From Patescibacteria group bacterium (GTDB lineage: Bacteria; Patescibacteriota; Minisyncoccia; Phycocordibacterales; UBA1550): a stretch of 64,000 nucleotides of DNA. Of this stretch, positions 22,017-61,323 are shown in pieces. The translations under genes were made by a program, and so were the position numbers. The first letter of the stretch is position 1. Every line of letters starts with the position of its first letter. The notes under the pieces are model-generated. The model saw only the letters and a program-made list of their open reading frames with translations, was not told the origin of the DNA and did not search any database. The stretch lies in the NCBI GenBank assembly GCA_038063615.1, contig JBBTUT010000003.1:1352-65351 (forward strand). Direction: 5' to 3'.

Positions 22017-22063
22017 TGTAACTTGGTTTGACGATATGGCGTGGTACATGGTAGTATTGTTGC

Positions 22064-22192: not shown

Positions 22193-22222
22193 GTGTCAGG
22201 TACCTTTGACTTGAATTTGAGC
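22191..22222. repeat. REP-like element aggtgtcaggtacctttgacttgaatttgagc
   Basis: Related to 24249-24290 and to the RAYT-flanking hairpins. Confidence 0.55.
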
Positions 22223-22253
22223 AGAATCTTCCCCGGCATGTTATAGTTGCTGT

Positions 22254-22743: not shown

Positions 22744-22889
22744 ATTTTGCATAATTGGGACAGTCACGATTGTTTCGTAAATTATGTGGTGTAGTTTGGG
22801 TGCAAACTCAATGCAGGTTACTTTTGTAGCATTATAGTAGTCAATTTACTCAAGAGAGGTGGCGTTTTGTAAATCTCAAAGACGCAGGA

Positions 22890-35023: not shown

Positions 35024-35798
35024 GGGAAAGGGGGTCAGGTACCCTTTCCCTTTACTTCTGGGGAAAGGGGGTCAGGTACCCTTTCCCTTTACTTCTGATA
35101 TACTAACCATATGCCTCGCATCACTCGTACCGACATCGGCAATCATTGCTATCATGTCATAAACCGTGCCAACGCGCGTATGCCGATTTTCTTCGCAGAA
35201 AAGGACTATGTTTTGTTTGAGCAAGTCCTAGAGGAAGCGCAAGAAAAGTTCTCTATGAGAATCCTCGCATACTGCCTCATGCCAAACCATTTTCACCTTG
35301 TGTTGTATCCAAAAAATGATGGTGACATGGGAAAATTCATGCAATGGCTCACGCTCACCCATACCCAGCGCTGGCATCAGGCGAACAATACGAAAGGAAG
35401 TGGGCATCTCTACCAAGGAAGGTACAAATCTTTTTTGATACAGGGCGACAACCATCTTCTCTCTGTTATTCGTTATGTCGAGCGAAACTCGCTTCGCGCA
35501 AAACTTGTTAGAAAAGCAGAGAACTGGGGTTTTTGTAGTTTAGCACGACGACTATCAATCAACACAAGAAAAAAGAAACTCTTGTCAGCATGGCCGATAC
35601 CGGAGCCAAGAGATTATCTCTCATTTGTTAGCACCCCGCAAACAAAAGAAGAGGAAGAAAGCATCAGAGGATCTGTCGTAAGAGGGAAGCCGTTTGGTGC
35701 AGATGCATGGGCTACAAAAATGATCGAGAAGTTTGGACTTGAAGCTACCGTGCGCTCGACAGGGAGACCCAAAAAGGGTACCTGACCCCCTTTTTCTC
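35024..35798 (+). mobile_element. IS200/IS605-like (RAYT-like) element: two tandem 38-nt left hairpins, a Y1 transposase gene, and an inverted right hairpin
   Basis: Left: gggaaagggggtcaggtaccctttccctttacttctg twice (35024-35098). Right: aaaaagggtacctgaccccctttttctc (35771-35798), inverted. Transposase stop TGA lies inside the right hairpin. Confidence 0.7.
35111..35785 (+). CDS. IS200-like / REP-associated tyrosine transposase (Y1 HUH)
   Basis: HUH motif in CLMPNHFHLVLYP. Transposase_17-like N-terminus (YHVINRANARMPIF). Confidence 0.7.
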   Translation: MPRITRTDIGNHCYHVINRANARMPIFFAEKDYVLFEQVLEEAQEKFSMRILAYCLMPNHFHLVLYPKNDGDMGKFMQWLTLTHTQRWHQANNTKGSGHLYQGRYKSFLIQGDNHLLSVIRYVERNSLRAKLVRKAENWGFCSLARRLSINTRKKKLLSAWPIPEPRDYLSFVSTPQTKEEEESIRGSVVRGKPFGADAWATKMIEKFGLEATVRSTGRPKKGT

Positions 35799-39680: not shown

Positions 39681-40682
39681 ATGAAAAAACAACATACAGA
39701 ACTTTTATTTGTTCAGATTACCCCTGAGTGTAATATGGGTTGTCGATATTGTCCTTTTTCTAACCAAAATAATCTTATAAATAGACAAAATAATTTTAGT
39801 GCGCAGATCAATTCAATCAAAAACACTTTTGACTCAAAATCTTTCACAGAGAGTTCTTTCGGTGAGTTAATTGTATATGGAGGAGAGGCGCTTCTTTACT
39901 TTGACCAAGTTAAAAGAATAATTAATGAATATAAAAATTTCCGACATTACGGAAAAATAACAGTATGCACTAACGGCATTCTTATTAATCAAGATGTCAT
40001 TACCTATTGTAAAACCAACAAGATAAATGTGACTATAAATATGGATGGGGATTTTAATTTAGTCGCAAGTAATAAATTTTTTTCTAAAACAGATTGGGCT
40101 AAACTCACTGGTAATATAAAAGGACTTCATTCAGAGGGAATACCATATGATTTCTCTACGACCATTACACCTCACTTTATTGAAAATTTTAATTCACAAG
40201 TAAAATTTTTAGAATCTTTGCACCCGAGAATGATAGGTTTTAATTTTTTGAGGGATACTCAAGCACAAAAAGAATTTGGAATAAGCAACCCTGATAATTA
40301 TTTGCAAGATGCTACTTCTTTGGTGTTTAAATATAACTCAGTTGTGAATTTTAATCGAAATAAAAAACTGAGAGCTTTTAAAGAGAAAAAACAGATTTCT
40401 GATTGTATATGTTCTGGGATGGGTATAACTATCCTCGCAACCGGTGAATATACGACATGCGGAATATTTCCATCTCAAAGATGCAGGACATCAAGAGAGG
40501 TAATCAGCATCATGAAGGAAAATTATAAAAAATTATTTTTAGACATAGAACTAGGACAAAACATAAAAGACTTACCAACTTTTGGAGGAGGTTGTTCAAA
40601 GCTCTTGCGAGAGGACAATAAAAGATTTTCTTATTATAATGCTTGGGTAAGTTTTGAACAGTTTAATTATGAAAAATTATAA
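39681..40682 (+). CDS. Radical SAM enzyme with C-terminal SPASM domain
   Basis: CNMGCRYC (Cx3Cx2C) at residues 17-24. C-terminal Cys clusters (CICSGMG...CGIFPSQRC...GGGC). Confidence 0.75.
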   Translation: MKKQHTELLFVQITPECNMGCRYCPFSNQNNLINRQNNFSAQINSIKNTFDSKSFTESSFGELIVYGGEALLYFDQVKRIINEYKNFRHYGKITVCTNGILINQDVITYCKTNKINVTINMDGDFNLVASNKFFSKTDWAKLTGNIKGLHSEGIPYDFSTTITPHFIENFNSQVKFLESLHPRMIGFNFLRDTQAQKEFGISNPDNYLQDATSLVFKYNSVVNFNRNKKLRAFKEKKQISDCICSGMGITILATGEYTTCGIFPSQRCRTSREVISIMKENYKKLFLDIELGQNIKDLPTFGGGCSKLLREDNKRFSYYNAWVSFEQFNYEKL

Positions 40683-41550: not shown

Positions 41551-43227
41551 ATGATAAAAGTACAAAATCTTCAGAAAAGCTACGGTTCATTAACAGTGCT
41601 CTCCGATATTTCTTTTTCACTTGGAAGAGGACAGAAGGTGGCATTGGTTGGACTCAATGGAACCGGGAAAACAACTCTGCTTAAAATTGTGGCCGGTCTT
41701 GAGGAGCAGGATGCTGGAAAGATCGACCTTGCAACGGATGCCTGTATCGGTTATCTACCTCAAGATACGGGCCTTTCGGGGAACGAACCCATTATGGACT
41801 ATCTGAGGAAAGTGTCTGGCATTGATGTGCTCGAGAAAGAAATAGGAATTTTGTCTTCTGAGCTGGGTGACCCTGAAAAGGTCAAGCGTTACGGTGATGT
41901 TCGCAGTAAATATGAGCATCTCGACGGTTACTCTTTTGCTCACAGAGCAGAAGTGATGCTTTCAGGATTCGGGCTTGAAGATGTTGGGCTTGACCGCCCA
42001 CTGTCTAATCTGAGCAGTGGGCAGAAAAGCAAAGTGGTACTTGCGGGTATTTTGCTTAAGGGTGTTGATTTGCTTTTGCTTGATGAGCCTACGAACAACC
42101 TCGATCTCCCTGCTCTCATTTGGCTCGAGGATTTTCTGCAAAAATCCAAGGCATCATGCATCGTTGTTTCGCATGACCGCAGATTTCTCGACAAAGTTGT
42201 AAGAAAGATCTTCGAAATTGATTGGCGTACACGCGCACTTACCATCACTGGAGGCACATATAGTGATTATCTGGAAATGGTGGCAAAGCGTGTTGCATGT
42301 CAAAAGGAAGAGTACCGGCTTCAACAGGAGGAAATCGAGCGTCTGAACGAACGGGCGCGCGAAAAGAAGGCGGATGCTACTCGAGGATCACACTGGTCTC
42401 CACGCGACAATGACAAGTTTTTAAAGGGGTTTAAGCGTGATCGTGCTACGAAGTCTTCGAAGGCGGCAAAGGCTATTGAAAAGCGGGTAGAACAAATGGA
42501 TAAGATTGAAAAGCCAATAGAAAGAAAGCCGTTTGAGATACCTCTCAATGCTGAAGTTGATTCTGGTACGCTTGATGTTCGTCTCTCAGATGTTGTGATT
42601 GAATACCCAAACACTTTCCGTATTGGCCCACTGTCTTTTGAGGCACGCTATGGTAGCAGGGTCGGCATAATGGGTCTAAACGGATCAGGAAAATCGACAT
42701 TGCTAAAGACCATAACTGGACAGATGGCGCCTACTCACGGGAAAATTGAGGTTGGTTCTGGTCTCAGGATTGGCAATATGATGCAGGAGCACGAAACGCT
42801 TCCTCGCGAACGCACATTGCTTGAGTTTCTTGAAGAACGGGCACATCTAAGCAAGCAGGATTCATATGCCAAACTGTCAAAGTTTGGGTTCGATGAAAGA
42901 CAGGTCAAGTTGCCTATCAGCACCTTAAGTCCGGGTGGGCGCGCGCGCCTCCTGCTAGCTTTATTCTCAGCCCAGTCGGTCAATATGCTTGTTTTGGATG
43001 AGCCAACAAACCATCTCGATATCGAAGCACTGAATGCCCTTGAAGAAACACTGAGAACTTATCGTGGCACGGTACTGCTCGTCTCTCATGACAGATATTT
43101 CATCGAAAAAGCTTCGCTGGATACAACTTATGTTTTGTCTGACGGAGCTCTGACAAAGATTCCTGATTTTAAGACTTATGTTAAAACAGCAGAAGAGAAA
43201 GCACGAAAGTTGCTTAAACTGTTATGA
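41551..43227 (+). CDS. ABC-F family ATPase (two ABC domains, no TM domain)
   Basis: GLNGTGKTTLLK / LSSGQKSKVVLA / LLLDEPTNNLD, then GLNGSGKSTLLK / LSPGGRARLLLA / LVLDEPTNHLD with an inter-domain linker. Confidence 0.85.
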   Translation: MIKVQNLQKSYGSLTVLSDISFSLGRGQKVALVGLNGTGKTTLLKIVAGLEEQDAGKIDLATDACIGYLPQDTGLSGNEPIMDYLRKVSGIDVLEKEIGILSSELGDPEKVKRYGDVRSKYEHLDGYSFAHRAEVMLSGFGLEDVGLDRPLSNLSSGQKSKVVLAGILLKGVDLLLLDEPTNNLDLPALIWLEDFLQKSKASCIVVSHDRRFLDKVVRKIFEIDWRTRALTITGGTYSDYLEMVAKRVACQKEEYRLQQEEIERLNERAREKKADATRGSHWSPRDNDKFLKGFKRDRATKSSKAAKAIEKRVEQMDKIEKPIERKPFEIPLNAEVDSGTLDVRLSDVVIEYPNTFRIGPLSFEARYGSRVGIMGLNGSGKSTLLKTITGQMAPTHGKIEVGSGLRIGNMMQEHETLPRERTLLEFLEERAHLSKQDSYAKLSKFGFDERQVKLPISTLSPGGRARLLLALFSAQSVNMLVLDEPTNHLDIEALNALEETLRTYRGTVLLVSHDRYFIEKASLDTTYVLSDGALTKIPDFKTYVKTAEEKARKLLKLL

Positions 43228-43230
43228 GCA

Positions 43231-43275
43231 TAGAACCCAACAAGCATAAAAGCTTGTTGGGTTCTATTTATTTCG
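43231..43275 (+). terminator. Hairpin agaacccaacaagc-ataaa-gcttgttgggttct plus atttatttc
   Basis: Perfect 14-nt stem after the ABC-F stop. Confidence 0.7.
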
Positions 43276-43414: not shown

Positions 43415-44182
43415 ATGATAAAATTAACTTTTATTGGAAGTGGCTGTTGGCAGGGTATTCCAGCGCCTTTTGGTGCGGATAAAATTAGCCAGAATGTAGA
43501 ATGGGGTTCAAAAGATTTTCGCTTTAGGACATCTCTCCATATTGAAACTGAAAATGGGAAAAGTATTGTAGTTGAGGCAACACCTGATATTAGGTTGCAA
43601 TCATGGAAGTTTAAGTTAGGAAAACCTGATGCTATTCTTGTTTCTCATTGGCACTGGAATCATTTATTTGGGTTGCTCGATTTAGATTGGTTTGCTAAAA
43701 AGAACCCACTTATTGTCTATGGGAATAGTGTGACGAAAGAGTGGTACGAAGAAAGGATGAATCATGTGAATGTTAATTTTCAAACATTTAAGTCGTATGA
43801 GCCGTTTGAAATTGATAATCTTAGGATTACTCCTGTTGCCGTTGAACATGTCAGCGGTACAGATGGGTTTCTGTTTGAAGATTTAAATAGTGGCAAAAGA
43901 TTTGCGTATCTTTCTGATTTAAGTGGGATACCCGATGATACCGTTGGAATGATTAGAGATATTGATTTAATCATCACCGATGTCACATACATTGAATCAG
44001 ATATAAATGATGACCCTACTCATTTAAAGAAGGATCAAATTATTCCGTTTCTCAAGAATCTCAAAGCAAAGGAAATAGTTCTAGTAAACATAGGGTCGTA
44101 TCAAAAGCTTACGCACGATGACCTCGAACAAAAATTTCCTCAATATGCTATTGCGTATGACGGAATGGAGCGATGGTTTTAA
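43415..44182 (+). CDS. MBL-fold metallo-hydrolase-like protein (variant HWHWNH motif)
   Basis: VSHWHWNHLFGL sits where HxHxDH normally is (Asp replaced by Asn). TGGTATAAT box at about 43330. Confidence 0.55.
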   Translation: MIKLTFIGSGCWQGIPAPFGADKISQNVEWGSKDFRFRTSLHIETENGKSIVVEATPDIRLQSWKFKLGKPDAILVSHWHWNHLFGLLDLDWFAKKNPLIVYGNSVTKEWYEERMNHVNVNFQTFKSYEPFEIDNLRITPVAVEHVSGTDGFLFEDLNSGKRFAYLSDLSGIPDDTVGMIRDIDLIITDVTYIESDINDDPTHLKKDQIIPFLKNLKAKEIVLVNIGSYQKLTHDDLEQKFPQYAIAYDGMERWF

Positions 44183-44221: not shown

Positions 44222-45343
44222 ATGAAGTTAAAATCAAATCTCATAGACCAGTTGGACAAGGCAGACAGCCTATTTAAAAACGAAATAATATCCGAATTTG
44301 GAATTCCTGTTTATAATCCAGAATCTCATTATTTGGAGCTAACAAAATCAAAGTATTATTGGGCGTTACTTACCCTCCGCCATTGCCTCAAGGTCTCATC
44401 TGACCAGTACTTTAGTGTTGATGTTGGGGCTACTAACATAGATTTATTTATGATGACACCAAGTGTTTCTTCTCCAATGGGACCAGGTTCTGATTCTGAG
44501 GCAATACCGATAAAGTTTGGGAACCTGGTTACTTTTCTTGTTGATTCGTCCCAGTTTGGTTTTGAGCCACTACTAATTAATAATTTTGATAAAGTATATT
44601 GCTACCTCCCTTCAATGCGTGGTGAAGATCACGACAAGAGGCATCTTAATCAATTTTATCATTGTGAAGCAGAAATAAGAGGAGAATTAGGTGATTTAAC
44701 CCCAATCATAGAAAAATATATTAAGATTTTGGCCGAGACATTAAAAGCTTTGCCAAATCTAACTGAAAAAATTAGTGCTAATATGTCCGCCACAAATAGT
44801 GCAATAGAAGCTATAATATCGGCTGATAAATTCCCTGTGATTACTTTTGACGAAGCGATTGTGTTGTTGGAAGAAAACGGGCATCAGTCACTTGTCAATT
44901 ATTCCGAACATGGGCGGGACATTACTTCTTATGGGGAAATTATTTTATCAAAGATGTTAGGATTTAAAACACCTTTTTGGGTGCACGGCTATGATCGTGG
45001 CAGAGTTGCTTTTTATCAAAAGCCAGACCCTAATAACCTTGACAAGGTTATTAATGCTGACTTAATCTTCCCACCACTTTTTGAAGGGGCATTTGGTGGG
45101 GAAATTGTTGGATGCGGACAGAGACAGGACAATAAAAGTGAGATACTTGAGTCATTGAGAATTCAAAATATATCATCTGAGCCATACGAATGGTATATAA
45201 ATTTGAGAGAGTTACCAGAGTACAAAACCACTTCCGGTTTTGGGCTTGGCATAGAAAGATTTATAACATGGGCACTCGGTCATGATGATATTAGAAATTC
45301 TATTCCGTACCCTCGTCTGAAGAATGTACTAACCTTACCATAA
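44222..45343 (+). CDS. Class II aaRS-like catalytic-core protein (AspRS/AsnRS paralog lacking anticodon-binding domain; AsnA / AS-AR-like)
   Basis: Motif 2-like MRGEDHDKRHLNQFYHCEAEI and motif 3 GFGLGIERFITW. Homologous to the C-terminal half of the aspS at 58349. No OB-fold N-terminus. Confidence 0.65.
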   Translation: MKLKSNLIDQLDKADSLFKNEIISEFGIPVYNPESHYLELTKSKYYWALLTLRHCLKVSSDQYFSVDVGATNIDLFMMTPSVSSPMGPGSDSEAIPIKFGNLVTFLVDSSQFGFEPLLINNFDKVYCYLPSMRGEDHDKRHLNQFYHCEAEIRGELGDLTPIIEKYIKILAETLKALPNLTEKISANMSATNSAIEAIISADKFPVITFDEAIVLLEENGHQSLVNYSEHGRDITSYGEIILSKMLGFKTPFWVHGYDRGRVAFYQKPDPNNLDKVINADLIFPPLFEGAFGGEIVGCGQRQDNKSEILESLRIQNISSEPYEWYINLRELPEYKTTSGFGLGIERFITWALGHDDIRNSIPYPRLKNVLTLP

Positions 45344-45347
45344 AAAT

Positions 45348-46208
45348 ATGAAAAATATGCCAAACTACTACAATAAAGTTACTGAATATTTTAACGAGAA
45401 AGCATCTAGTTATGATGAAGTTGACAACCAAAAATATTGGGTGTTGTCCGATATGTTCTTTAAAGAAATTCTACGAAGAGAACTCCCGGCACTTATTGGG
45501 GACAAAAAACATATCAACCTTTTAGATGCTGGAGCTGGCACTGGTCGCTGGACAATTTTTTTTGATGAAATATTTAAAGATCAATATGATATAACAGGCA
45601 CCCTTGTAGATATTTCAAGTAAAATGCTTGATGAGGCATCTAAAAAATTAAAGGCAAGTGGCGCAGACACCCGCTTTAAGATTAAGAACACTAATATTGA
45701 AAATCTCGAAGATTTCCCCAATAAGAATTTTGATTTAAGTTTATCTTTCTATAATGTCATAAGCTTCGTGGAAGATCCTAAACGGGCACTTACTGAAATA
45801 CATCGAGTTTTGAGTGATGATGGTGTGCACATAAGTATTGTAGCTAATAAATATCATGCATACTACTTTTCGTTCCTTACTAACCGGCTCTCATCAATAG
45901 ATTCAATAAAAAAAGACTCGAAGGTTCGTTTCAATGACCTCATGCCGGCTATCCACTGCTTTACCCCAGAAGAACTAAAAGATCTTTATCTCTCGGCTGG
46001 TTTTAAAACCTGTAGGGTTATTGGTGGCCCAAATTTTATTTATCCTGGAATGGAAGAAACTTATGTGCACGGCAGCACCCCCTCATTGCAAGAGAAGCTT
46101 GCTGAGGCTGATAATTTCCAAAAAATACTAGAAGCCGAACTTGAGTACTACAACATGCCTGATATTGTGGGAAGAGGGAATGTATTACTCGCAATTGCCA
46201 CTAAATAG
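45348..46208 (+). CDS. Class I SAM-dependent methyltransferase
   Basis: Motif I LLDAGAGTGRWT. Confidence 0.65.
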   Translation: MKNMPNYYNKVTEYFNEKASSYDEVDNQKYWVLSDMFFKEILRRELPALIGDKKHINLLDAGAGTGRWTIFFDEIFKDQYDITGTLVDISSKMLDEASKKLKASGADTRFKIKNTNIENLEDFPNKNFDLSLSFYNVISFVEDPKRALTEIHRVLSDDGVHISIVANKYHAYYFSFLTNRLSSIDSIKKDSKVRFNDLMPAIHCFTPEELKDLYLSAGFKTCRVIGGPNFIYPGMEETYVHGSTPSLQEKLAEADNFQKILEAELEYYNMPDIVGRGNVLLAIATK

Positions 46209-46218: not shown

Positions 46219-47259
46219 ATGTCTACTCTCTCACTAAAACCACACTATTTGGAAAAAGGGGATACCGTCGGGCTAATAAGCCCAGCTGCCCCCCTTGCTG
46301 GGTTGGTGCCTCACCGTACTGACCAAGGAATCAAAATGTTGGAAGAGCTTGGTTTTAAGATAAAAATTGGATTGAACGCTATGAATATAACTGGCTATAC
46401 TGCTGGCACTGCAGAAGAAAGGGCGTCAGATATAAATAACTTTTTTGCTGACCCAGAAGTAAAAGGAATTGTTTCTTTTATAGGGGGGAATCATTCGAAT
46501 CAAATTTTAGAATATCTTGATTTTGATATTATTAAAAAAAACCCGAAAGTATTTATTGGGTACTCTGATATTACTGTTCTGCATTTAGCCATATATGCAA
46601 TGACTGAGCTAACTACTTTTTATGGTCCAGCAGTTTTGACACAGTTTGCTGAAAATCCTGCAATAATGGAATATACAAAAAAATATTTTTTGAAAGCAGT
46701 TACACAAAAAAGTCCAATTGGCGTGATCGAGCAATCAGTAGAGTGGACAGATGAAACTCTAAATTGGTTCACAAAAGAAGATTTGCAAGGAGCACGCCAG
46801 ATGAAGCTTAATTCCGGATGGAGATGGCTTAAGAGTGGTACGGCTCAGGGGAAATTACTCGGTGGGTGTCTTGCCTCAATGATGCATCTTCGTGGAACAA
46901 AGTATTGGCCAGATTTTGAAAAGGCAATTTTATTTTGGGAAATCTCCGAGGGTGAGGCAGATTTTCGTTTAGGAGAGAGTGTGTCAACAATAGATGCGCA
47001 TTTAACCGATTTGGAGTTGTCTGGCGTCTTCACCTCTATTCAGGGAATGATAGTCGGTCGTCCTTTTGGATATGACTCAGGCCAAGAACAAAAATTAATA
47101 GAAAAAATTTTAGAGAGAACAAAAAAGTATTCATTCCCAATTCTTTATGGTGTTGATATCGGACACACAGACCCGATGATCACTCTTCCTATTGGGGTAA
47201 AAGTAATGATTAATTCAGACAAGAATATTTTTGAAATTTTAGAGAGTGGCGTAATGTAG
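46219..47259 (+). CDS. Peptidase S66 family (LD-carboxypeptidase LdcA / microcin C immunity MccF-like)
   Basis: GYSDITVLH nucleophile motif. C-terminal DIGHTDP catalytic His region. ORF track begins at 46141. Confidence 0.7.
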   Translation: MSTLSLKPHYLEKGDTVGLISPAAPLAGLVPHRTDQGIKMLEELGFKIKIGLNAMNITGYTAGTAEERASDINNFFADPEVKGIVSFIGGNHSNQILEYLDFDIIKKNPKVFIGYSDITVLHLAIYAMTELTTFYGPAVLTQFAENPAIMEYTKKYFLKAVTQKSPIGVIEQSVEWTDETLNWFTKEDLQGARQMKLNSGWRWLKSGTAQGKLLGGCLASMMHLRGTKYWPDFEKAILFWEISEGEADFRLGESVSTIDAHLTDLELSGVFTSIQGMIVGRPFGYDSGQEQKLIEKILERTKKYSFPILYGVDIGHTDPMITLPIGVKVMINSDKNIFEILESGVM

Positions 47260-47379
47260 AACCTCATGGTTGAATGTACCACCGGGGCACTTGACAAATT
47301 ACAAGAACTAATATACATTGTTGCTAGTTTAGTTTTTTGAAATTTCACAAAGGAAACAAACAAATAAGGAGGTGCTAAG

Positions 47380-48675
47380 ATGACACATACAATGTTTGTC
47401 CAGGCGCATTTGGGTGCTGAGTTTTCCGGGATGGCTAGAGTTTTATCCAAGAGGCATATCGGCAAGATTTTATTTTGTGGGGCACGCCTTTTGGAAGAAA
47501 ACATTCAGTTAGTATTTAGAGAGGAACACCTCGCAAACTATCGACACATCGTTAGTCTGCCGAGAGGGAGTTTGCTCAAGGTCTCTGGGAATAAAATACA
47601 TACTCGGAGCGGCACACCATCACTGGAAATAACTTCCGCAGACATTATCCATATCGTCAAAGAAAACTTACCAGATAAACAAAATTGCCTGAGTAGGTCG
47701 CTTCGATATCGTCGCCGAACGATTGATCTTATGACGAACGACACATCTTTCGTCTTTTTTAGGAGGCAATCAGAGGTCTTGATGATAATAAGGAAGTTTC
47801 TTTATGATTTGGGGTATCATGAGTTCATTACTGGCACATTGCAGGAAGTGTTTGAAGGTGGACAGTCTGTGTCTTTCGACACATACTGCAAGGCGACTGG
47901 TAAAAATGTTACTCTTAGCTTAACAAGTGAACTGAAGCTTAGGCGGTTGCTTGTCTCTGGGTTTGATCGTGTGTTTGAGATTGCTCAATCATTTCGAAAT
48001 GAAGGTTCTGACAAACTACATTCTCCTGAGTTTACTCTTTTGGAAATGTATGCTCGCAGTTCTGGACATTTAGAAATGATGGAATTGCTTGAGTCAATGG
48101 TTTCAGAAATTGCTGGGAAAATACAAGATGATTCCGATGTCCTGTTTACTCCAGAAAGATACCGTGCTCCGTTTCAGCGTATTCTTTTTCGAGAGGTATT
48201 CGAAAATCATTTTGGTGATTTTAGCAGATTTAACATTCAGTATTTCTCAGAATTAATGCCAGAGATGTTCAATGTGGCAATGTCTCATTTCACTTGGACA
48301 ATGAAGCTCATTGAAAAAGTGATTCTTCCAACTATTCGTGGACCAGCATTTCTTGTTGAGTTACCAGTTGGAATGTCTCCATTCGTTAAAAATTCAAGCG
48401 ATGGTGTAACCACACAGAGAGCATTCTTTGTCGCTGATGGATTATTTGTCGCCGATATTTATTCTGACGAGAATAATCCAGACATAATACAAAAGAATCT
48501 CGAACAGCAATCAATGGCGGTTGGGAATGTCTTAAATAAAGATTATGTTGAGATATTATCGCTTGGGCTTGGCGAGTCAGCCGGTCTAGGCATGGGCTTA
48601 AATCGTTTATCGATGCTCTTTTTGGGCACTTTGCCTCGCGATATTAAAGAAACTATATTGTACCCAATTCTCTAA
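47380..48675 (+). CDS. Lysyl-tRNA synthetase-like paralog (class IIb, divergent)
   Basis: OB-fold-like N-terminus. Motif 2 FRNEGSDKLHSPEFTLLEMY. Degenerate motif 3 GLGMGLNRLSMLF (Asn in place of the conserved Asp). Confidence 0.6.
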   Translation: MTHTMFVQAHLGAEFSGMARVLSKRHIGKILFCGARLLEENIQLVFREEHLANYRHIVSLPRGSLLKVSGNKIHTRSGTPSLEITSADIIHIVKENLPDKQNCLSRSLRYRRRTIDLMTNDTSFVFFRRQSEVLMIIRKFLYDLGYHEFITGTLQEVFEGGQSVSFDTYCKATGKNVTLSLTSELKLRRLLVSGFDRVFEIAQSFRNEGSDKLHSPEFTLLEMYARSSGHLEMMELLESMVSEIAGKIQDDSDVLFTPERYRAPFQRILFREVFENHFGDFSRFNIQYFSELMPEMFNVAMSHFTWTMKLIEKVILPTIRGPAFLVELPVGMSPFVKNSSDGVTTQRAFFVADGLFVADIYSDENNPDIIQKNLEQQSMAVGNVLNKDYVEILSLGLGESAGLGMGLNRLSMLFLGTLPRDIKETILYPIL

Positions 48676-48689
48676 AAAGGAGGTCTATC

Positions 48690-50090
48690 ATGAACCGTTA
48701 CCCCGATTCTTTTTACAAGAGTCACTCTATTCTTCAAGTAATATCTGAGCATGAAGATTTAGTTAAGGATGTAACCGAAGTCACTACTGCAGGGAGAGTG
48801 CTTGCGCGACGAGCTTTTGGTAAAATCATATTCCTCGATATCCAGGATTTTTCTTCAAAGATCCAGTGCTATGCGAGGGAGGATATCTTAGGTTCGACTA
48901 AACAGGTATTTATTGCGAAGCAACTCAAAGTTGGAGATGTTGTTGGCGTGCGTGGCACAGCGTTCCTCCCAAAATCAGGAGAAAAGTCTATTAAGCTTAC
49001 TGATATATTTTTGCTTTCGGAAACAACTCTTCCGTTCCCAGAAAAATATCACAGGCTAGTAGACCAAGAGGCCCGTTATCGCCAGCGTTATCTTGATCTC
49101 ATTATGAATTCTGATACGCGGAAGATTTTCCAGACACGGTTCTTGTTGTTGAAAGAACTGCGCCGTTTCCTTGATGGTCGTGGCTTTATTGAGGTAGAAA
49201 CACCGATATTCCAACATACCCCTTGCGGTGCATCGGCGAACCCATTTCGGACACGGCACGACGCAAAAGGAATTGATCTTTATCTTCGTATCTCACCAGA
49301 GACATATCTTAAGCAGTTGATAGTAGCTGGGATAGATAGGGTGTATGAGATTGGTAAAAACTTTCGAAACGAGGGGGTTGACCCGACACATCTTCAAGAG
49401 TTTACGATGCTCGAGTTCTATGTCTCCTATTGGAGCTATCGTGAGAATATCGTGTTTGTTCAAGAGCTGTTGCGAGAAATCATTCAGAGGAGCACTGGCG
49501 GGCTGTCTATCCCATGCAACGAGATAACACTCGATTTTGGCGCAGAATGGAGCCATGTGAAATATCGAGATGTTTTACTTTCTGGAACGGGGATAGATGT
49601 TCTTGAGATGCGGAATACTACGGAGCTTCTGGCTGAAATGAAGCGGTGTGGTGTTGAAATTGAGCATGAGAAAGTGGAGTCGCTGGGTTCGATGGTTGAT
49701 AAGCTGTACAAGCGTTTTGTACGACCAAATCTTGTTCAGCCAACAATCTTAATGCAGCATCCAGCATATTTACTGCCTCTTGCTCGCCCAAGTGATGAAG
49801 ACCCTCGTGTTGCGGACTCATTTCAGGTACTGGTTAACGGGTGGGAGATAGTCAAAGCGTATTCGGAACTGGCTGACCCGGAGCTACAACGGTCACTCCT
49901 CGAAGGTCAATCTCAGTCTCGTAAAGACGGCGACAAAGAAGCCATGTTTTTAGATGAAGATTTTCTTCTTTCTTTAAAGTATGGCATGCCACCTGTCTCT
50001 GGGGTTGGAATTGGTATTGATCGGCTTCTCGCGATTCTTACTAATCAACGAAACCTCAATGAAGTTGTTTTGTTCCCTTTGATGAAGTAG
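48690..50090 (+). CDS. lysS: Lysyl-tRNA synthetase (class IIb), canonical motifs
   Basis: Motif 1 region, motif 2 FRNEGVDPTHLQEFTMLEFY, motif 3 GVGIGIDRLLAIL. N-terminal anticodon-binding OB fold. Confidence 0.75.
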   Translation: MNRYPDSFYKSHSILQVISEHEDLVKDVTEVTTAGRVLARRAFGKIIFLDIQDFSSKIQCYAREDILGSTKQVFIAKQLKVGDVVGVRGTAFLPKSGEKSIKLTDIFLLSETTLPFPEKYHRLVDQEARYRQRYLDLIMNSDTRKIFQTRFLLLKELRRFLDGRGFIEVETPIFQHTPCGASANPFRTRHDAKGIDLYLRISPETYLKQLIVAGIDRVYEIGKNFRNEGVDPTHLQEFTMLEFYVSYWSYRENIVFVQELLREIIQRSTGGLSIPCNEITLDFGAEWSHVKYRDVLLSGTGIDVLEMRNTTELLAEMKRCGVEIEHEKVESLGSMVDKLYKRFVRPNLVQPTILMQHPAYLLPLARPSDEDPRVADSFQVLVNGWEIVKAYSELADPELQRSLLEGQSQSRKDGDKEAMFLDEDFLLSLKYGMPPVSGVGIGIDRLLAILTNQRNLNEVVLFPLMK

Positions 50091-50099: not shown

Positions 50100-50140
50100 T
50101 CTTTGTTTCCTTGCACGGCTATTGATTTTAAAATCAATAG
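50100..50140 (+). terminator. Hairpin acggctattgatttt-aaaatcaatagccgt plus U-tract, followed by the duplicated 51-nt module
   Basis: Perfect stem after lysS. Confidence 0.7.
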
Positions 50141-50201
50141 CCGTGTTTTTTTGTTTTCTTTTTTTGTGCGGGGCGTGGTATGATTGGGGGAACGGAACGA
50201 T

Positions 50202-51275
50202 ATGGAATTCGCTTTTTTAGTACACCCAAGGGATTTGTCGGATGTTTTTAAAAAATATCCGTTGCTTAAGTTTTTCCCTGTATCATTGACCGAATTCTTT
50301 CTATTAAAATTTTGGCCACCTGTTTTTGTTGCAAAAATAACAGGGTTAAAATTGGTGGGTGGTGGTAATTCTACAAATGGGTGTGTTCTTAGCATTCCTT
50401 TAACCGCAAGGCAGATGATGGAGAATAGGACTGTTGCTTCGAAAAAGATATTAGATGCGACAATTTTTGCTAAAAACATTGGTGTGAAAATTATTGGATT
50501 GGGGGCTCTGACTTCCTCCCTTAGTAAAGGCGGGTTAGATTTAATAGATAAAGTAGATATCAATATAACGACAGGGCATGCTTATACCGCATACAATGTA
50601 ACAAAAAATATATTTGAACTTTGTCGTATTCTCGATCTTGATAAAACAAAAATAACTGTTGCAATTGTTGGGGCGGCTGGGTCTATTGGTTCTACCTCAG
50701 CTCGAGTTCTTGCTCGTGCTGGGTACCAGAATCTACTACTGGTTGATCTTGAAAGAAAGCGACACTTTTTTGAAAAACTCGAAAGCGAACTTAGGAATTT
50801 TAATAGTGGGATTAATATTAAGTTTTCACATCAAATCAAAGATATTATTAATGCTGATGTTGTCATTACTGCAACAAACGCTCCAGAGGCTTTGGTAGAA
50901 GCAGGAGACCTTAAGGTTGGAGCTATCGTTGTTGATGATGCTCAACCATCTGATATTTCAGAAAATGTTTTTGAGAGAGAAGATGTTCTAGTTGTTTCTG
51001 CTGGAGTTGTACATACTCCAAATATCGAAACTCATTTTAATTTCGGGTTAGCAGATAAGTTTGATAATTTTTGTTGCCTTGCCGAGTTGCTGATTTTGGC
51101 ATCGCATAAATGGGACAAACATTATATAATTGATCGAGCAACTCTTGAATCAGTTGATGAAATAGCTGAGTGGGGGGAAGCACTTGGTTTTCATTTGGCA
51201 AAGTTTCAAAACCCAAGAGGGCTAATCTCCACGGAAAAACTCAGTGAAATAAAAAGAATAATTCATCAAAAATAA
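50202..51275 (+). CDS. Acyl-ACP-reductase-like NAD(P)-dependent thioester reductase (AAR / glutamyl-tRNA-reductase superfamily)
   Basis: Architecture parallels cyanobacterial AAR: N-terminus FAFLVHP, W-PP...ITG block, GLGALTS, Rossmann VAIVGAAGSIGS, and conserved catalytic-Cys context NFCCLAELLIL (AAR: MFACFAEAMLL). ORF track begins at TTG 50184. Confidence 0.55.
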   Translation: MEFAFLVHPRDLSDVFKKYPLLKFFPVSLTEFFLLKFWPPVFVAKITGLKLVGGGNSTNGCVLSIPLTARQMMENRTVASKKILDATIFAKNIGVKIIGLGALTSSLSKGGLDLIDKVDINITTGHAYTAYNVTKNIFELCRILDLDKTKITVAIVGAAGSIGSTSARVLARAGYQNLLLVDLERKRHFFEKLESELRNFNSGINIKFSHQIKDIINADVVITATNAPEALVEAGDLKVGAIVVDDAQPSDISENVFEREDVLVVSAGVVHTPNIETHFNFGLADKFDNFCCLAELLILASHKWDKHYIIDRATLESVDEIAEWGEALGFHLAKFQNPRGLISTEKLSEIKRIIHQK

Positions 51276-51276: not shown

Positions 51277-53061
51277 ATGATACTTAACCTTGATATCAAA
51301 AATACATTAATATTGATTATCGCGGTAATCAATATTACATACGGCGCAATCATTTATTTAAAAGATAAAAAGAGCGCTACCAGTAGCTGGTTTTTCCTTT
51401 TGGCCGTCTCGGTGGGATTATGGGGAGTAAGTATGTTTTTATTTCGATCTGCTCAAGAAGAGTATTTGGCCAGTATTTTTTCAAGAATTTTGTATTTCTC
51501 AGCAGCGGTTATCCCCATCGTGTTTATTTATTTTTCAGCTGTCTTCCCAAGTGTTTCATCTGTATTTGGTTTTCGACAAAAATATATTCTGCCAATCCCA
51601 TTTTTTATAATAGCTTTATTCTCCTTAACTCCTGATTATCTGGTAAAGAGTACGCAGATTCTAGTAGGTGAAGAAACACACATTTTATTTAATAATTTTT
51701 ATCATACACTTTATGTTTTTTACATAAATATTTTTTTCGCATACGGATATTTTTTATTGGTTAAAAAATATTTTGTAAGCAGATTTCAAGATGTTGTTTT
51801 AAGTAAGCAAATTATTTATATTATCGCAGGAACATTTATTTCGACAATGATTGGTGTTTTTACAAACCTGCTTGGACCATATATGGGTATATTTAAGTTT
51901 AATTGGGTTGGTCAAATTGGAAATGTCGTTATGATTTCAGCTATCTCATATGCAATAGCTAAACATCAGTTGTTTAACATCAAACTCATCCTCGTTGAAT
52001 TGGCGATTTTGTTGCTTAATATGTTTCTTTTGTTCAATGTGTTTACTTCGCATGCGACGGTGGACTTTGTGCTCAATATCTCGGTGTCATTGTTTGTCTT
52101 TATCTTCAGCATCATCCTTATGCGCGGTATTTACAAGGATATTCGGGACAGAGAGCGGATCGAGGGATTGGCGAAAGAGATGGCGGTGACGAACGAGAAG
52201 CTCCATATACTGGAACAACAAAAGACGGAGTTTGTGTCCATCGCTTCGCACCAGCTCCGCACTCCGCTGACAGTCATCAAGGGCTATGCGTCGATGATCC
52301 TCGAGGGGACTTTTGGCACCATTGCCACTCCGGTGCACGATGCTATGGACAAGCTGTACAAGTCGAGCGAGAGGATCGTGGCACTGGTGGAGGACCTGCT
52401 GACGGTGTCGCGACTGGAGCAGGGGAGAGGCGCGCTTCATTTTGAGACGGTGGACCTCGTGAGAGTCATTCAAATGGTGACGATGGAAATGGATGAAGAT
52501 ATCAAGAGGTCAAATCTCGACTTCTCGTTTACGGTGGAAGAGGGGGGAGAATTCCCCGTCGCAATCGACGAGAAAAAGTTCAAGCAAGTGGTGAAGCACA
52601 TCCTCGACAATGCCATCGAGTACACAAACGCCCCCGGCAGAGTGCGTATCGCTATCAATGAAGACAACATCGCCGACAAAATCCGTCTCACGGTTTCTGA
52701 TACCGGGGTGGGGATGACCGCGGAGCAGATCCAGAGTATTTTTGAGAGGTTTAATTTGAAGATTAAAGAGCAGACGACAAACGACGGACAACAGACGACG
52801 GGGGAAGGGGAAAGGAAAAAGGAAGGAAAGTTTTTATGGCCGAGCCACGAATCAGCTGATTCGAAGTTGAAAGTGGAAAGTGGAATACAAGAATCAAAAT
52901 CAGAAGAACCAGAGACAGAGGCGCCAAACCAGCGCACGCCCGGTATCGGGCTCTACATTGCGCAGGAAATTATCGAAGCCCACCACGGCACCCTGCACAT
53001 CGAGTCCGCCGGCATGAACGAAGGCACGACGGTGATCGTGGAGTTGCCGAGGGCTAAATAA
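51277..53061 (+). CDS. Membrane sensor histidine kinase (multi-TM sensor, HisKA, HATPase_c with low-complexity insertion)
   Basis: H-box SIASHQLRTPLTVIKGY. G1 DTGVGM and G2 GIGLYIA are separated by an about 45-aa Gly/Glu/Lys-rich insert. Confidence 0.8.
   Translation: MILNLDIKNTLILIIAVINITYGAIIYLKDKKSATSSWFFLLAVSVGLWGVSMFLFRSAQEEYLASIFSRILYFSAAVIPIVFIYFSAVFPSVSSVFGFRQKYILPIPFFIIALFSLTPDYLVKSTQILVGEETHILFNNFYHTLYVFYINIFFAYGYFLLVKKYFVSRFQDVVLSKQIIYIIAGTFISTMIGVFTNLLGPYMGIFKFNWVGQIGNVVMISAISYAIAKHQLFNIKLILVELAILLLNMFLLFNVFTSHATVDFVLNISVSLFVFIFSIILMRGIYKDIRDRERIEGLAKEMAVTNEKLHILEQQKTEFVSIASHQLRTPLTVIKGYASMILEGTFGTIATPVHDAMDKLYKSSERIVALVEDLLTVSRLEQGRGALHFETVDLVRVIQMVTMEMDEDIKRSNLDFSFTVEEGGEFPVAIDEKKFKQVVKHILDNAIEYTNAPGRVRIAINEDNIADKIRLTVSDTGVGMTAEQIQSIFERFNLKIKEQTTNDGQQTTGEGERKKEGKFLWPSHESADSKLKVESGIQESKSEEPETEAPNQRTPGIGLYIAQEIIEAHHGTLHIESAGMNEGTTVIVELPRAK
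52801..52885. repeat. 85-nt element (ggggaagggg...aagtttttatggccgagc...aatcagctgattcgaagt.gaaagt) inserted in-frame in the kinase ATP-lid; second copy at 56216-56300
   Basis: Shared 19-nt and 24-nt blocks between the two loci, read directly. Confidence 0.7.
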
Positions 53062-56683: not shown

Positions 56684-57019
56684 ATGAATCCCGTTAGAGA
56701 TTCCCTGCCCACTTTCGCCAGAACACAAATTTGAGCTCAAGTGATGGCGGGCGGGCTCAGTTATGTATTATGTTTATGTTATTCAGAATGACAAAGGTAC
56801 ATGGTATACTGGCAGCACAGGAGACCTACGGAAACGCTTGAGGGAGCATAACACTGGCAGGTCAACTTGGACAAAAGGTAAGGGGGCGTGGGAGGTTATT
56901 TATTACGAAGCATGTCTTAATGAGCAAGATGCTCGGTCGAGAGAAATGTATTTAAAATCGGGAATGGGTAAGCGCTATCTAAAAACTAGACTCAAGCGTT
57001 TCCTATCTCTAACGGGATG
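56684..57019. mobile_element. GIY-YIG nuclease-encoding element with 12-nt terminal inverted repeats TCCCGTTAGAGA/TCTCTAACGGGA, flanked by ATGAA/ATGAAAA, on the trpS start codon
   Basis: atgaaTCCCGTTAGAGA ... TCTCTAACGGGatgaaaaag. The nuclease stop TGA overlaps the trpS ATG (gggATGA). Gene-less derivative at 33040-33149. Confidence 0.7.
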
Positions 57020-57020
57020 A
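56763..57020 (+). CDS. GIY-YIG nuclease domain protein (UPF0213-like, 85 aa)
   Basis: MYYVYVIQNDKGTWYTGSTGDLRKRLREHN matches the GIY...YIG motif. Confidence 0.75.
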   Translation: MYYVYVIQNDKGTWYTGSTGDLRKRLREHNTGRSTWTKGKGAWEVIYYEACLNEQDARSREMYLKSGMGKRYLKTRLKRFLSLTG

Positions 57021-57988
57021 AAAAGACGCTGCTTTCGGGGGTCAAGCCGACGGGTACGGCTCATATCGGCAACTATTTTGGCGCGATGCGCCAGTTTGTG
57101 GATTTTCAGGATGAGTACCGTCAGTTTATTTTTATTGCAAACTATCACGCGCTCACGAGCGTGTCTGATGGCGCGCTTTTGCGCAAGCTTTCGCTCGAGC
57201 TCGCGATGGACTATCTCGCTGTCGGCGTCGACCCGAAAAAAACGACGATGTTCCTCCAGTCTGATGTGCCCGAGGTGACCGAGCTCGCGTGGATATTCAA
57301 CACCATCACGACGGTGCCGTACCTCATGCGCGCGCATGCGTACAAAGACGCCGAGGCGAAAAACAAAGAGGTGAATGTCGGGCTTTTTGATTACCCTATT
57401 CTCATGGCGGCGGATATTTTGATATACGGCGCGGATGTCGTGCCCGTCGGTCTCGACCAGAAACAGCACATCGAGATCGCGCGCGATACGGCGCAAAAAT
57501 TCAATCGCACATTTGGCGAGACATTCACCGTGCCCGAACCACTCATTCTCGAAGAGGTGCAGACTATCATGGGCACCGACGGGCGCAAGATGAGCAAGAG
57601 CTATGGAAACGGGATTGGACTTTTTGCTTCAGATGAGGAGATCCGAAAAGCGGTGATGAGTATCCCGACTGATTCAAAAGGGGTAGAAGAACCGAAAGAC
57701 CCGGAGGTCTGCAAGGTATTTTATTTCCACAAATTGGTGAGTGGCAATGATTTGGAAAGTATCCGCGCACGCTACCTCGCGGGGGGCATTGGGTATAAAG
57801 AGTCGAAAGATATTTTGTTCGAGAATATGCGCGCATTCATCGCGCCGATGCGCGCGCGGAGAGATGAGATCGCGCGCGACCCGGAGGCGGTCATCCGCAT
57901 TCTCCGCGAGGGGGGAGAGGTCGCGCGGGCGGAAGCGCGAAAGAAAATGAATGAGGTGCGGGAGAAGGCGGGGCTGATATTAAAATAA
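57017..57988 (+). CDS. trpS: Tryptophanyl-tRNA synthetase
   Basis: Class I motifs TGTAHIGNYFG (HIGH-like) and KMSKS. 323 aa. Confidence 0.9.
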   Translation: MKKTLLSGVKPTGTAHIGNYFGAMRQFVDFQDEYRQFIFIANYHALTSVSDGALLRKLSLELAMDYLAVGVDPKKTTMFLQSDVPEVTELAWIFNTITTVPYLMRAHAYKDAEAKNKEVNVGLFDYPILMAADILIYGADVVPVGLDQKQHIEIARDTAQKFNRTFGETFTVPEPLILEEVQTIMGTDGRKMSKSYGNGIGLFASDEEIRKAVMSIPTDSKGVEEPKDPEVCKVFYFHKLVSGNDLESIRARYLAGGIGYKESKDILFENMRAFIAPMRARRDEIARDPEAVIRILREGGEVARAEARKKMNEVREKAGLILK

Positions 57989-58263: not shown

Positions 58264-58314
58264 TAGAATGTTGAATATCGAATATCGAATATTGAATATG
58301 GAATGGGGAATGGG
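58264..58314. repeat. Heptamer repeat block gaatgttgaatatcgaatatcgaatattgaatatggaatggggaatggg
   Basis: Same unit family as 4779-4912 and 6127-6210. Confidence 0.85.
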
Positions 58315-58348
58315 TACGCTAACTTTATTAACTTTACAAACTAAATTC

Positions 58349-61252: not shown

Positions 61253-61323
61253 GTGCTATTTTATAAGTACTGTTGGTATGTTTTGTATTAAAAAACGATT
61301 GGCGGTATACTGAGCTTGTTAAT

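Follow-up and report, generated by a model that had tools for sequence, protein, structure and literature searches.

Repurposed paralogues of the aminoacyl-tRNA synthetases (aaRSs) are rare, and each of those described, such as EpmA, AsnA, HisZ, the amino-acid:carrier-protein ligases and the cyclodipeptide synthases, has opened a field. The present text deals with a further candidate, found in a 64-kb stretch (hereafter the window) of contig JBBTUT010000003.1 from the Patescibacteria, or candidate phyla radiation (CPR). As a preliminary description of this DNA had stated, two full-length genes of the class IIb lysyl-tRNA synthetase (LysRS) type lie here in tandem on the plus strand, the upstream gene (UP) at 47380-48675, with 431 aa, and the downstream gene (DN) at 48690-50090, with 466 aa, separated by 14 bp and each preceded by an AAGGAGG-type ribosome-binding site. 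UP appears to be a neofunctionalised aaRS paralogue in an apparently undescribed module, which also contains a paralogue of the catalytic core of asparaginyl-tRNA synthetase (AsnRS), a methyltransferase-fold protein and an S66 serine peptidase of the MccF type. No description of the UP family or of the module was found in literature searches on MccF, aaRS paralogues, Patescibacteria/CPR and LD-carboxypeptidase.

Among the closest known systems, EpmA (PoxA, GenX) is a LysRS paralogue with a non-canonical acceptor, given that it beta-lysylates elongation factor P (EF-P), and provides a precedent for the neofunctionalisation of this fold; it has no anticodon-binding domain and keeps both Mg2+ glutamates. 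HisZ is an aaRS paralogue that works with partners and has lost an essential catalytic feature, being devoid of the catalytic arginines of motifs 2 and 3 and of anticodon function. The cyclodipeptide synthases are class I proteins (TyrRS/TrpRS-like) that have lost ATP binding, have no anticodon domain, and use aminoacyl-tRNA for the production of diketopiperazines; to our knowledge, no class II counterpart of these enzymes has been described. AsnA and the archaeal AS-AR consist of a class IIb core with no anticodon domain and with an intact adenylation site. Finally, the immunity and tailoring set of the clusters similar to those of microcin C (McC) comprises MccF, the class I methyltransferase MccD, and GNAT, HIT and carbamoyltransferase proteins (PMC8323819).

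Both UP and DN match the Pfam tRNA-synt_2 family and the NCBIfam LysRS models, and they share 27% identity over their full length (BLASTP, E 8e-45). UP stays below the curated cut-offs, with 230.9 bits against 468 for NF001756 and 211.2 against 427.6 for TIGR00499. In a search of 5.8 billion proteins, its family comprised 69 clusters, mostly of 420-445 aa and all from Patescibacteria where named, with scores of 210-958 bits, followed by a drop to about 160 bits, which is the level of canonical LysRS. A profile search of 1.84 billion representatives returned some 20-35 clusters (50% identity) above the canonical plateau, with a penumbra of related paralogues under them. The NCBI entry identical to UP is named 'MAG: amino acid--tRNA ligase-related protein [Patescibacteria group bacterium]', where MAG stands for metagenome-assembled genome.

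When UP is compared with its homologue in a near-identical locus (L089), 27 non-synonymous and 49 synonymous changes are found, which corresponds to a ratio of non-synonymous to synonymous substitution rates (dN/dS) of 0.139, and the alignment of the family contains 33 invariant columns. The AlphaFold2 (AF2) model of UP, with a predicted local distance difference test (pLDDT) score of 91 and a predicted template modelling (pTM) score of 0.89, presents a five-stranded oligonucleotide/oligosaccharide-binding (OB) barrel at residues 14-91, followed by the class II core, and its closest structure is the T. thermophilus LysRS:tRNALys complex (TM score 0.86). In a crude neighbour-joining (NJ) tree, the UP family and its penumbra form a clade apart from all canonical LysRSs (bootstrap 0.55), the neighbouring Patescibacterial LysRSs falling in the separate canonical clade, and UP retains HSPEF in motif 2 where DN reads HLQEF. 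Given this separate clade and the difference between HSPEF and HLQEF, UP is an old paralogue rather than a recent tandem copy or a pseudogene. The near-identical recent duplicates for which the preliminary description had allowed were ruled out on the same two grounds together with the identity of 27%. To judge from the sequences, the UP family is an old, Patescibacteria-restricted family of LysRS-derived paralogues that is under purifying selection.

The possibility that UP is a pseudogene in decay after a tandem duplication, also considered in the preliminary description, could draw on the 27% identity, on the absence of the catalytic glutamates (see below) and on a relative in which the gene is split. 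It is faced, however, with an intact reading frame, a strong ribosome-binding site, a dN/dS of 0.14, a family of about 70 clusters with its invariant columns, a confident AF2 model, and the separate clade and HSPEF motif, so its probability is close to nil and the selection and conservation data effectively refute it. In the split relative (L101; LZQN01000016.1), the LysRS-like gene is present as two overlapping open reading frames (ORFs), at 123-851 (242 aa) and 827-1222 (131 aa), and no cassette genes were found in the 4.7 kb to its right. This copy may be frameshifted or decaying, or else the split may come from an assembly error.

The residues that are kept and changed in UP were counted in 64 members of the family and in 46 canonical LysRSs, with the E. 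coli numbering checked on the 1bbu alignment. In the Asp-, Asn- and LysRSs, U35 of the anticodon is read by an R, an F and a Q with a class IIb spacing of 7 and 11 residues, as known from the AspRS and LysRS-tRNA structures. The anticodon-domain residues R20, R25, F32 and Q43 of UP are conserved in 62-64 of the 64 members (R25 in 62, F32 and Q43 in all 64), R25, F32 and Q43 being 7 and 11 residues apart, just like their counterparts in canonical LysRS. The N-terminus of UP, which had been described as divergent, is so only in that the N-terminal helix is missing, given that the OB-fold and its R, F and Q residues are kept.

Within the catalytic core, the equivalent of E240 (E184 in UP) is invariant in the family, as is the motif 2 signature FRNEG-x4-H-x-PEF-x3-E-x-Y, in which R262, E264, H270, F274, E278 and Y280 correspond to R206, E208, H214, the adenine-stacking F218, E222 and Y224 of UP, and the R480 of motif 3 (R409), which is likewise invariant. 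In LysRS, E240 contacts the alpha-amino group, and E278 and Y280 the lysine, and in LysU the phosphates of ATP are contacted by H270 and R480. The remainder of motif 3 reads GLGMGLNRL (residues 402-410) in UP and GVGIGIDRL in DN, as had been noticed, and its description as degenerate was overstated, given that the G-x-G-x-G and the Arg are intact and that only D479 is changed, to an N (N408) that is the consensus of the family (60/64). This D-to-N change is the least of the differences that UP presents.

The more drastic changes are found at E414, which is replaced by F in 50 members and by A in eight (F349 in UP; E in 36 of the 46 canonical enzymes), and at E421, which is replaced by F in 41 members, by D in ten and by N in seven (F356 in UP; E in 43/46). 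These two glutamates are reported to be the Mg2+ ligands of the LysU-ATP structures (Desogus et al. 2000). When the penumbra is included, the residues at 414 are F, A, V, I, S or W, and those at 421 are F, D, N, S, H or L. Other substitutions that have become typical of the family are N424 to D (57/64; D359 in UP), E428 to D (63/64; D363), L429 to E (61/64; E364), R236 to S (51/64), the Pro of motif 1 to G (61/64) and one Gly of the GG(A/S)A loop to E (60/64), together with a new conserved motif in the insertion domain, FTWxMKxIEK, at residues 304-313. The main lesion is that the canonical metal site has gone, the contacts of the scaffold with tRNA, adenosine and lysine being otherwise retained.

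In comparison with LysS and LysU (TIGR00499, NF001756), UP shares the OB-fold and class II core, the arginines of motifs 2 and 3, E240, E278 and Y280, and the anticodon triad, and differs in its scores below the cut-offs, the Mg2+ ligands, the insertion motif and the Pro-to-Gly change of motif 1, as well as in the location of its gene in a four-gene cassette, rather than in a translation operon. The UP family is the reverse of EpmA on both counts, given that it has the anticodon domain and lacks the Mg2+ glutamates. UP, with its OB-fold, reaches 89.7 bits on the EpmA model (TIGR00462), whose cut-off is 286.9, and neither epmB nor efp was found beside the LysRS-like gene in the contexts examined; a role in EF-P modification was rejected on the grounds of the anticodon domain and of the absence of these two genes. 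As in the case of HisZ, an essential catalytic feature is gone and partners are present, whereas the motif 2 and 3 arginines that HisZ lacks are kept in UP. With the cyclodipeptide synthases, which likewise retain an amino-acid pocket and interact with tRNA, UP would share the logic of an activated donor supplied by a genuine aaRS, and not the ancestry, if it does use aminoacyl-tRNA.

Given that the Mg-ATP chemistry appears lost while the contacts with tRNA, the lysyl group and adenosine are kept, the handling of a pre-activated lysyl group would be the most plausible activity of UP. One other possibility, on balance doubtful and still to be taken seriously, is that UP remains an ATP-dependent ligase with a displaced metal site, in which D359 (at N424) and E364 (at L429) take the place of E414 and E421, and which would activate lysine, or else a cationic amino acid similar to it, and transfer it to a tRNA or to some other acceptor that the partner enzymes produce. 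The non-metal contacts with ATP (R262, E264, H270, F274 and R480) are all invariant, two acids are lost and two gained on a single strand-loop, the new ones being 89-95% conserved, a D or an N is retained at 421 in a minority of the members, and the change of E428 to D, together with the additional E179 (DN) and E364, would acidify the pocket in a manner suited to a cationic substrate. This possibility is weakened by the variability of 414 and 421 in the family and its penumbra, as if these positions had been freed from constraint and no longer held a metal, and by the Phe residues that, in the alignment alone, sit at the position of the phosphate-Mg cluster of LysU; in addition, we know of no adenylating enzyme similar to the class II aaRSs that lacks these acids.

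It is also conceivable, and rather unlikely, that UP is a non-catalytic subunit or decoy that binds tRNA or an adenylate, either as a regulator or scaffold, similar to HisZ, of the AsnRS-like enzyme or of LysRS, or as an immunity protein that, beside the MccF-type hydrolase, sequesters a toxin mimicking an aminoacyl-adenylate. The loss of the Mg2+ ligands with the retention of the binding residues would fit such a function, as would the constant association with an immunity-type hydrolase, and the Gly that replaces the Pro of motif 1, a residue of the dimer interface, in 61 of the 64 members is a hint of altered dimerisation. Against this, the conservation of R262, R480 and the complete lysine pocket goes beyond that of known pseudo-aaRSs such as HisZ, the FTWxMKxIEK motif suggests a specific surface for a substrate or partner instead of mere sequestration, and LysRS would not be the expected target if the compound were an Asx-adenylate.

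The downstream gene is, by all appearances of its sequence, the ordinary housekeeping class II LysRS of the organism, and may not be its only LysRS, the analysis covering 64 kb of this genome. It exceeds the curated cut-offs, with 518.4 bits against 468 for NF001756 and 480.7 against 427.6 for TIGR00499, aligns with E. coli LysS (1bbu) at 378 bits, has a dN/dS of 0.075 against its close relative in L089, and clusters with other Patescibacterial LysRSs (bootstrap 0.95) within the canonical clade of a simple NJ tree. It contains the arginines of motifs 2 and 3, E240, E278, Y280, E421 and E428, and presents a Q at E414, a K at N424 and HLQEF instead of HNPEF in the motif 2 loop, which means that its description as canonical is right in terms of scores and less so in terms of its active site. 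The same Q414, K424 and HLQEF are found in all five of the other cassette-adjacent Patescibacterial LysRSs that cover the region (L007 1877-3385, L008 6409-7983, L091 3-1283, L098 5926-7326 and L109 3699-5096), and since these substitutions are common to the lineage, they represent a lineage trait in DN, and not damage. R412 is replaced by S, Q or M in these housekeeping enzymes. It can be speculated that a lysine amine replaces one of the metal ions, in a manner similar to that of an Arg in HisRS.

The genomic surroundings of the LysRS-like family were analysed in 24 non-redundant loci, drawn from contigs with family members and 21 metagenome loci retrieved by a degenerate DNA pattern specific to the family, which matched eight of eight family loci and none of 80 canonical ones; the loci were annotated by ORF calling and phmmer, and the sample is biased towards loci within reach of this pattern and of the protein index. 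An S66 peptidase adjoins the LysRS-like gene in 21 of the 24 loci, a class I S-adenosylmethionine (SAM)-dependent methyltransferase of the UbiE type is nearby in 18, and an AsnRS-like protein of about 372-384 aa in 17, the exceptions being mostly on truncated contigs. The order of the genes differs in four loci (L004, L006, L093 and L104), where the gene set persists. A canonical class II LysRS is adjacent in seven of the loci (the window with L089, L007, L008, L091, L092, L098 with L107, and L109), and the cassette persists in L113, whose housekeeping LysRS, encoded nearby, is of class I (PF01921). The primary genomic partner of the LysRS-like gene is the cassette of AsnRS core, methyltransferase and MccF-type hydrolase, and not LysRS.

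These contexts bear directly on the suggestion of the preliminary description that such a duplicate may be an antibiotic-resistant spare synthetase; UP would then be a second, drug-insensitive enzyme that takes over the charging of tRNA(Lys) under inhibition of the main LysRS. UP is of full length, with an intact anticodon triad, is predicted from the hairpins and the spacing to be co-transcribed with LysRS in the window, and adjoins an immunity-type hydrolase, all of which would suit a spare enzyme. However, both Mg2+ glutamates are absent and the score is half the LysRS cut-off, a class II LysRS is adjacent in seven of the 24 loci and the cassette present in 21, the LysRS of L113 is of class I, an AlaRS-core paralogue fills the same slot in other genomes, and the constant partner is an AsnRS-like protein with no anticodon domain, which cannot itself be a spare synthetase. 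A spare LysRS is, then, a very improbable explanation, and of the two options originally put forward it is that of a neofunctionalised enzyme that agrees with a conserved, selected paralogue family tied to a cassette.

Locus L113 (positions 1082-2653 and 5753-6178) belongs to the penumbra, and its class I LysRS and class II LysRS-like genes are 4 kb apart. A small S-adenosylmethionine decarboxylase is found between the AsnRS-like gene and the methyltransferase of this locus, with a carbamoyltransferase and a CN-hydrolase downstream, which hints at decoration of an aminopropyl or polyamine type. Additional genes present in single loci are HIT (L001), GNAT (L116), S51 (L008), HD (L004 and L116), the carbamoyltransferase and SAM decarboxylase of L113, and a metallo-beta-lactamase (MBL)-fold hydrolase (the window). 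Radical SAM genes adjoin the cassettes of L110 and L114.

In the window, the cassette and LysRS form a single block on the plus strand, flanked by strong terminator-like hairpins. The first of these (43230..43267; 16-bp stem and T-run) closes the preceding ABC-F gene and is the likely upstream boundary of the operon. The first gene of the unit encodes the MBL-fold (PhnP/RNase Z-like) metallo-hydrolase (43415..44182), which is also found in L089 and is elsewhere no conserved member of the cassette. It is followed by the AsnRS-core paralogue (44222..45343; 373 aa), which has no anticodon-binding domain, the UbiE/COQ5-like class I SAM-dependent methyltransferase-fold protein (45348..46208; 286 aa), and the MccF-type S66 peptidase (46219..47259, with a probable ATG start at 46219, the longest ORF beginning at a TTG at 46141). 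After UP (47380..48675) and LysRS (48690..50090), a second hairpin (50113..50146; 15-bp stem and T-run), 23 nt past the LysRS stop codon, is the likely end of the operon. The 120-bp gap before UP contains the best sigma-70-like promoter match of the region (47291..47319; TTGACA-17-TACATT), a match to the consensus only, and such sites are no more frequent in this region than expected from shuffled sequence. Within the window, no T-box or riboswitch was found before either LysRS gene (Rfam, gathering thresholds), and no tRNA genes were found by ARAGORN. The AsnRS-like and MccF-type genes were absent from the preliminary description, and both change the interpretation.

The AsnRS-like protein aligns with the P. 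horikoshii AsnRS (1x54) at 114 bits and with the archaeal asparagine synthetase 3p8t at 34 bits, and lies under all of the NCBIfam cut-offs, those of AsnA by a wide margin. While it is, like AsnA and AS-AR, a class IIb core with no anticodon domain and with an intact adenylation site, it differs from these in being closer to genuine AsnRS, below the AsnA cut-offs, and paired with an S66 hydrolase, which was the case in all of the loci sampled. Its active site is invariant in 127-128 of 128 homologues (the AsnRS-type S-x-Q...E, R133/E135 of motif 2, the Mg ligands D280 and E294, R301 and the R346 of motif 3), and this invariance indicates that the AsnRS-like protein is probably competent in catalysis and serves the module as its adenylating enzyme. 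The family, which is much larger than that of UP, yielded 941 hits, and the top 120, with identities of 60-92% to the query, span the Staskawicz-, Andersen-, Nomura-, Wolfe- and Moranbacteria. Two sequence subtypes can be told apart, by only about 60-90 bits.

The S66 protein scores about 200 bits against the MccF of both E. coli and B. anthracis, and 40-72 bits against LdcA, whose matches leave out the central region of the W-loop. The Ser-His-Glu triad is kept, with GYSD, GHTDP and FWE aligned to BaMccF and EcMccF. The acidic side chain of processed McC is read by N220 and R246/K247 of EcMccF, and two of these positions are Ala in the deposited variant 3tly. These specificity positions differ in the S66 proteins, with an Ala at N220 in the window and an Ala or an Asn in the cassette enzymes, and an acid-rich insert follows the catalytic Glu, as SEGEAD in the window and EDDDxE in most of the cassette homologues. 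The loop W..DE..NW is also retained, including the equivalent of W186 of EcMccF, a residue that stacks on adenine (PMC8323819). The changes at the specificity positions, together with the acid-rich stretch, suggest that the P1 residue would be basic or neutral. The methyltransferase has a generic class I fold, with weak scores to its nearest solved relatives, which include the carboxyl-methylating CmoM and LahSB, and its only full-length plasmid hit is on a Streptomyces tendae plasmid, next to nonribosomal peptide synthetase (NRPS) genes.

An S66 enzyme beside aaRS paralogues may also be thought of in terms of the cell wall, in which the module would remodel the stem or the cross-bridge of peptidoglycan, the S66 protein being an LD-carboxypeptidase that acts on L-Lys-D-Ala and the paralogues adding Lys, Ala and Asn, with or without the involvement of tRNA. 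Lys, Ala and Asn/Asp are indeed the amino acids that make up stems and bridges of the Lys type, the S66 family is that of LdcA, the acid-rich segment would suit the free epsilon-amine of a Lys at P1, and the high conservation of the proteins agrees with a housekeeping role. This explanation is nevertheless distinctly unlikely, given that the scores of the S66 genes against MccF are three to five times those against LdcA, that these genes keep the MccF-specific Trp loop, that conserved Mur or Fem neighbours of the cassette are absent from the loci examined, and that the methyltransferase would have no obvious role. LdcA itself is inactive on McC (PMC8323819), which also weighs against it.

The module extends beyond the genomes with a LysRS-like gene. 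In all four of the AsnRS-like loci sampled that lack this gene (L110, L111, L112 and L116), the AsnRS-like gene still adjoins S66, and in three of these S66 is flanked on its far side by a 'hypothetical protein' of about 365 aa, which is a very divergent paralogue of the alanyl-tRNA synthetase (AlaRS) catalytic core (L116 4897-6000, L110 4866-5954 and L112 4041-5132), of which there is none in the window. This assignment comes from Pfam tRNA-synt_2c matches (E 0.008 and 0.031), from a profile comparison with the A. aeolicus AlaRS 1riq (E 0.011), from an hhalign comparison with the window AlaRS (probability 93%, E 2.4e-7, 264 columns) and from a hidden Markov model (HMM) of the family, which retrieved the window AlaRS at 5.6e-6 and matched no LysRS-like locus. 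The AlaRS-core family comprises at least 211 clusters, all from Patescibacteria, about 20 of which have a precomputed PF01411 hit, and aligns only to approximately the first 320 residues of AlaRS, which leaves it without most of the tRNA-binding domains. The core of the module is formed by the AsnRS-like and MccF-like proteins, usually with the methyltransferase, and the slot for a second aaRS paralogue holds the AlaRS core in many genomes and the LysRS-like protein in a minority. An obligate heterodimer of the AsnRS-like and LysRS-like proteins was rejected, given that the AsnRS-like gene is mostly found without a LysRS-like gene. The members of the three paralogue families carry the database labels 'amino acid--tRNA ligase-related', 'lysyl-tRNA synthetase class 2' and 'hypothetical'.

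The cassette resembles the microcin C clusters in its classes of enzyme, with an adenylate-forming enzyme (of the Asn/Asp type), a class I SAM methyltransferase fold and an MccF-type S66 hydrolase. The HIT, GNAT and carbamoyltransferase genes that adjoin some cassettes parallel MccH, MccE2 and MccY, and these classes, with that of the SAM decarboxylase, are among those listed for mcc-like clusters (PMC8323819). It differs in that the adenylating enzymes are class II aaRS paralogues and that the specificity positions of S66 carry mostly acidic replacements. The trio of an adenylating enzyme, a class I SAM enzyme and an MccF-type hydrolase mirrors MccB, MccD and MccF, and this points to aminoacyl-nucleotide chemistry. 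It is tentatively proposed here, at a probability well short of even, that UP is an accessory, neofunctionalised part of a module of aaRS paralogues and MccF with microcin-C-type aminoacyl-nucleotide chemistry, in which it would handle the lysyl group.

According to this proposal, the AsnRS-like enzyme, with its invariant active site, would carry out the ATP-using, adenylate-forming step. UP, in which the canonical activation of lysine is most likely gone along with both Mg2+ glutamates, would bind tRNA(Lys) or a pre-activated lysyl group and then pass on or hold the lysyl moiety, whose source could be either the Lys-tRNA(Lys) of LysRS, which is adjacent in a third of the loci, or a ligand of the lysyl-adenylate type. 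The methyltransferase-fold enzyme would decorate the product, by parallel with MccD, and the MccF-type hydrolase would cut an aminoacyl-nucleotide or aminoacyl-amide bond, in editing or self-protection, by parallel with MccF.

A number of observations weigh against this proposal. The AsnRS-like protein and the methyltransferase are approximately 60-65% identical across classes, a degree of conservation that equals that of housekeeping aaRSs and is more in keeping with a core role in the cell than with an antibiotic. In about 30 loci, no MccB (ThiF-like), MccA precursor or MccC exporter was conserved, short mccA-like ORFs not having been searched for, and ThiF-type hits were confined to weak matches of the Rossmann fold in the gene at 50184-51275; similarly, the methyltransferase showed no mccD-specific similarity, and tblastn against plasmids found no mcc locus. 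ARAGORN found no dedicated tRNA partner of the cassette, only one unrelated tRNA-Tyr, across 29 related loci. The HIT, GNAT and HD proteins belong to very common families, and their presence at single loci may be due to chance. The bootstrap of 0.55 for the split between the paralogues and canonical LysRS is weak, and the invariant H270 and R480 could, together with the new acids D359 and E364, rebuild a metal site, in which case adenylation may persist in UP.

More specific versions deserve correspondingly less confidence. A specifically tRNA-dependent, microcin-like version of the proposal would be improbable. Equally hard to credit at present is a fuller scheme in which the Patescibacteria would both make and resist an aminoacyl- or dipeptidyl-nucleotide, similar to microcin C or ascamycin, using only class II aaRS paralogues and no MccB-type enzyme. 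In this scheme, the AsnRS-core paralogue would make the Asx-nucleotide warhead, and an interchangeable second paralogue would add the N-terminal residue, the LysRS-like protein doing so, as a first counterpart of the cyclodipeptide synthases in class II, from the Lys-tRNA(Lys) of the adjacent LysRS and the AlaRS core taking this part in other genomes, while the SAM enzyme would decorate the compound and the MccF-type hydrolase would give self-immunity.

The remainder of the window provides further context. The ABC-F protein directly upstream of the operon (41551-43227), separated from it by the strong terminator-like hairpin, scores 421.5 against a cut-off of 380 for the NCBIfam 'ribosomal protection-like ABC-F family protein'. 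An IS200-type Y1 transposase (35111-35785) and a radical SAM/SPASM-like protein of the peptide-maturase type (39681-40682) are located further upstream of the region. After the operon terminator, the gene at 50184-51275 encodes an NAD(P)-binding protein of 363 aa whose relatives are the N-terminal portion of PigE (142 bits) and acyl-ACP (acyl carrier protein) reductase (77 bits), both scores being far under the cut-offs, and is followed by a histidine kinase with a seven-transmembrane (7TM) receptor (51277-53061); 7TM histidine kinases also border the cassettes of L004 and L111. PADLOC assigned no defence system in the window, where it returned a generic methyltransferase hit and Rossmann-fold E1 hits only.

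Five genuine aaRS genes are present in the window, namely LeuRS (13-2238, cut at the start), AlaRS (9093-10865), LysRS, TrpRS (57017-57988) and AspRS (58268-59686). The AlaRS has only 590 aa and ends at the second additional domain. The AspRS is of the non-discriminating type (NF003483, 514 bits against a cut-off of 353), and so tRNA-dependent synthesis of Asn is expected, possibly with no AsnRS. A low-GC (guanine plus cytosine) island at 18141-24182 (GC 0.385-0.43, against about 0.47-0.52 in the flanks) contains a Fic-domain protein, an EcoRI-type adenine methylase, a GmrSD-N/HNH endonuclease and a PRiA4_ORF3-like protein, the last being the only sizeable minus-strand gene in that part of the window, and is likely to be a mobile restriction or defence island. 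At 61273-62985, a single ORF of 570 aa combines a RadC-family domain (29-233) with a Dcm-type cytosine-5 DNA methyltransferase (287-480).

The module is conserved, under selection and found throughout its lineage in a major uncultured radiation, and brings together as many as three types of class II aaRS paralogue and an MccF-type hydrolase, familiar from microcin C immunity, with a LysRS-like member that keeps its tRNA-reading domain and has lost the metal ligands of amino acid activation. The automatic annotation of UP-family genes as 'lysyl-tRNA synthetase', which applies to many members at JGI, inflates the aaRS counts of the CPR. If it is true that the module makes or handles aminoacyl-nucleotides, it would represent a new biosynthetic route to compounds of the aaRS-inhibitor type, with a bearing on the host interaction of the episymbiotic CPR bacteria, and if its function is instead a housekeeping one, it would be an unrecognised step of the translation or the envelope biology of the CPR.

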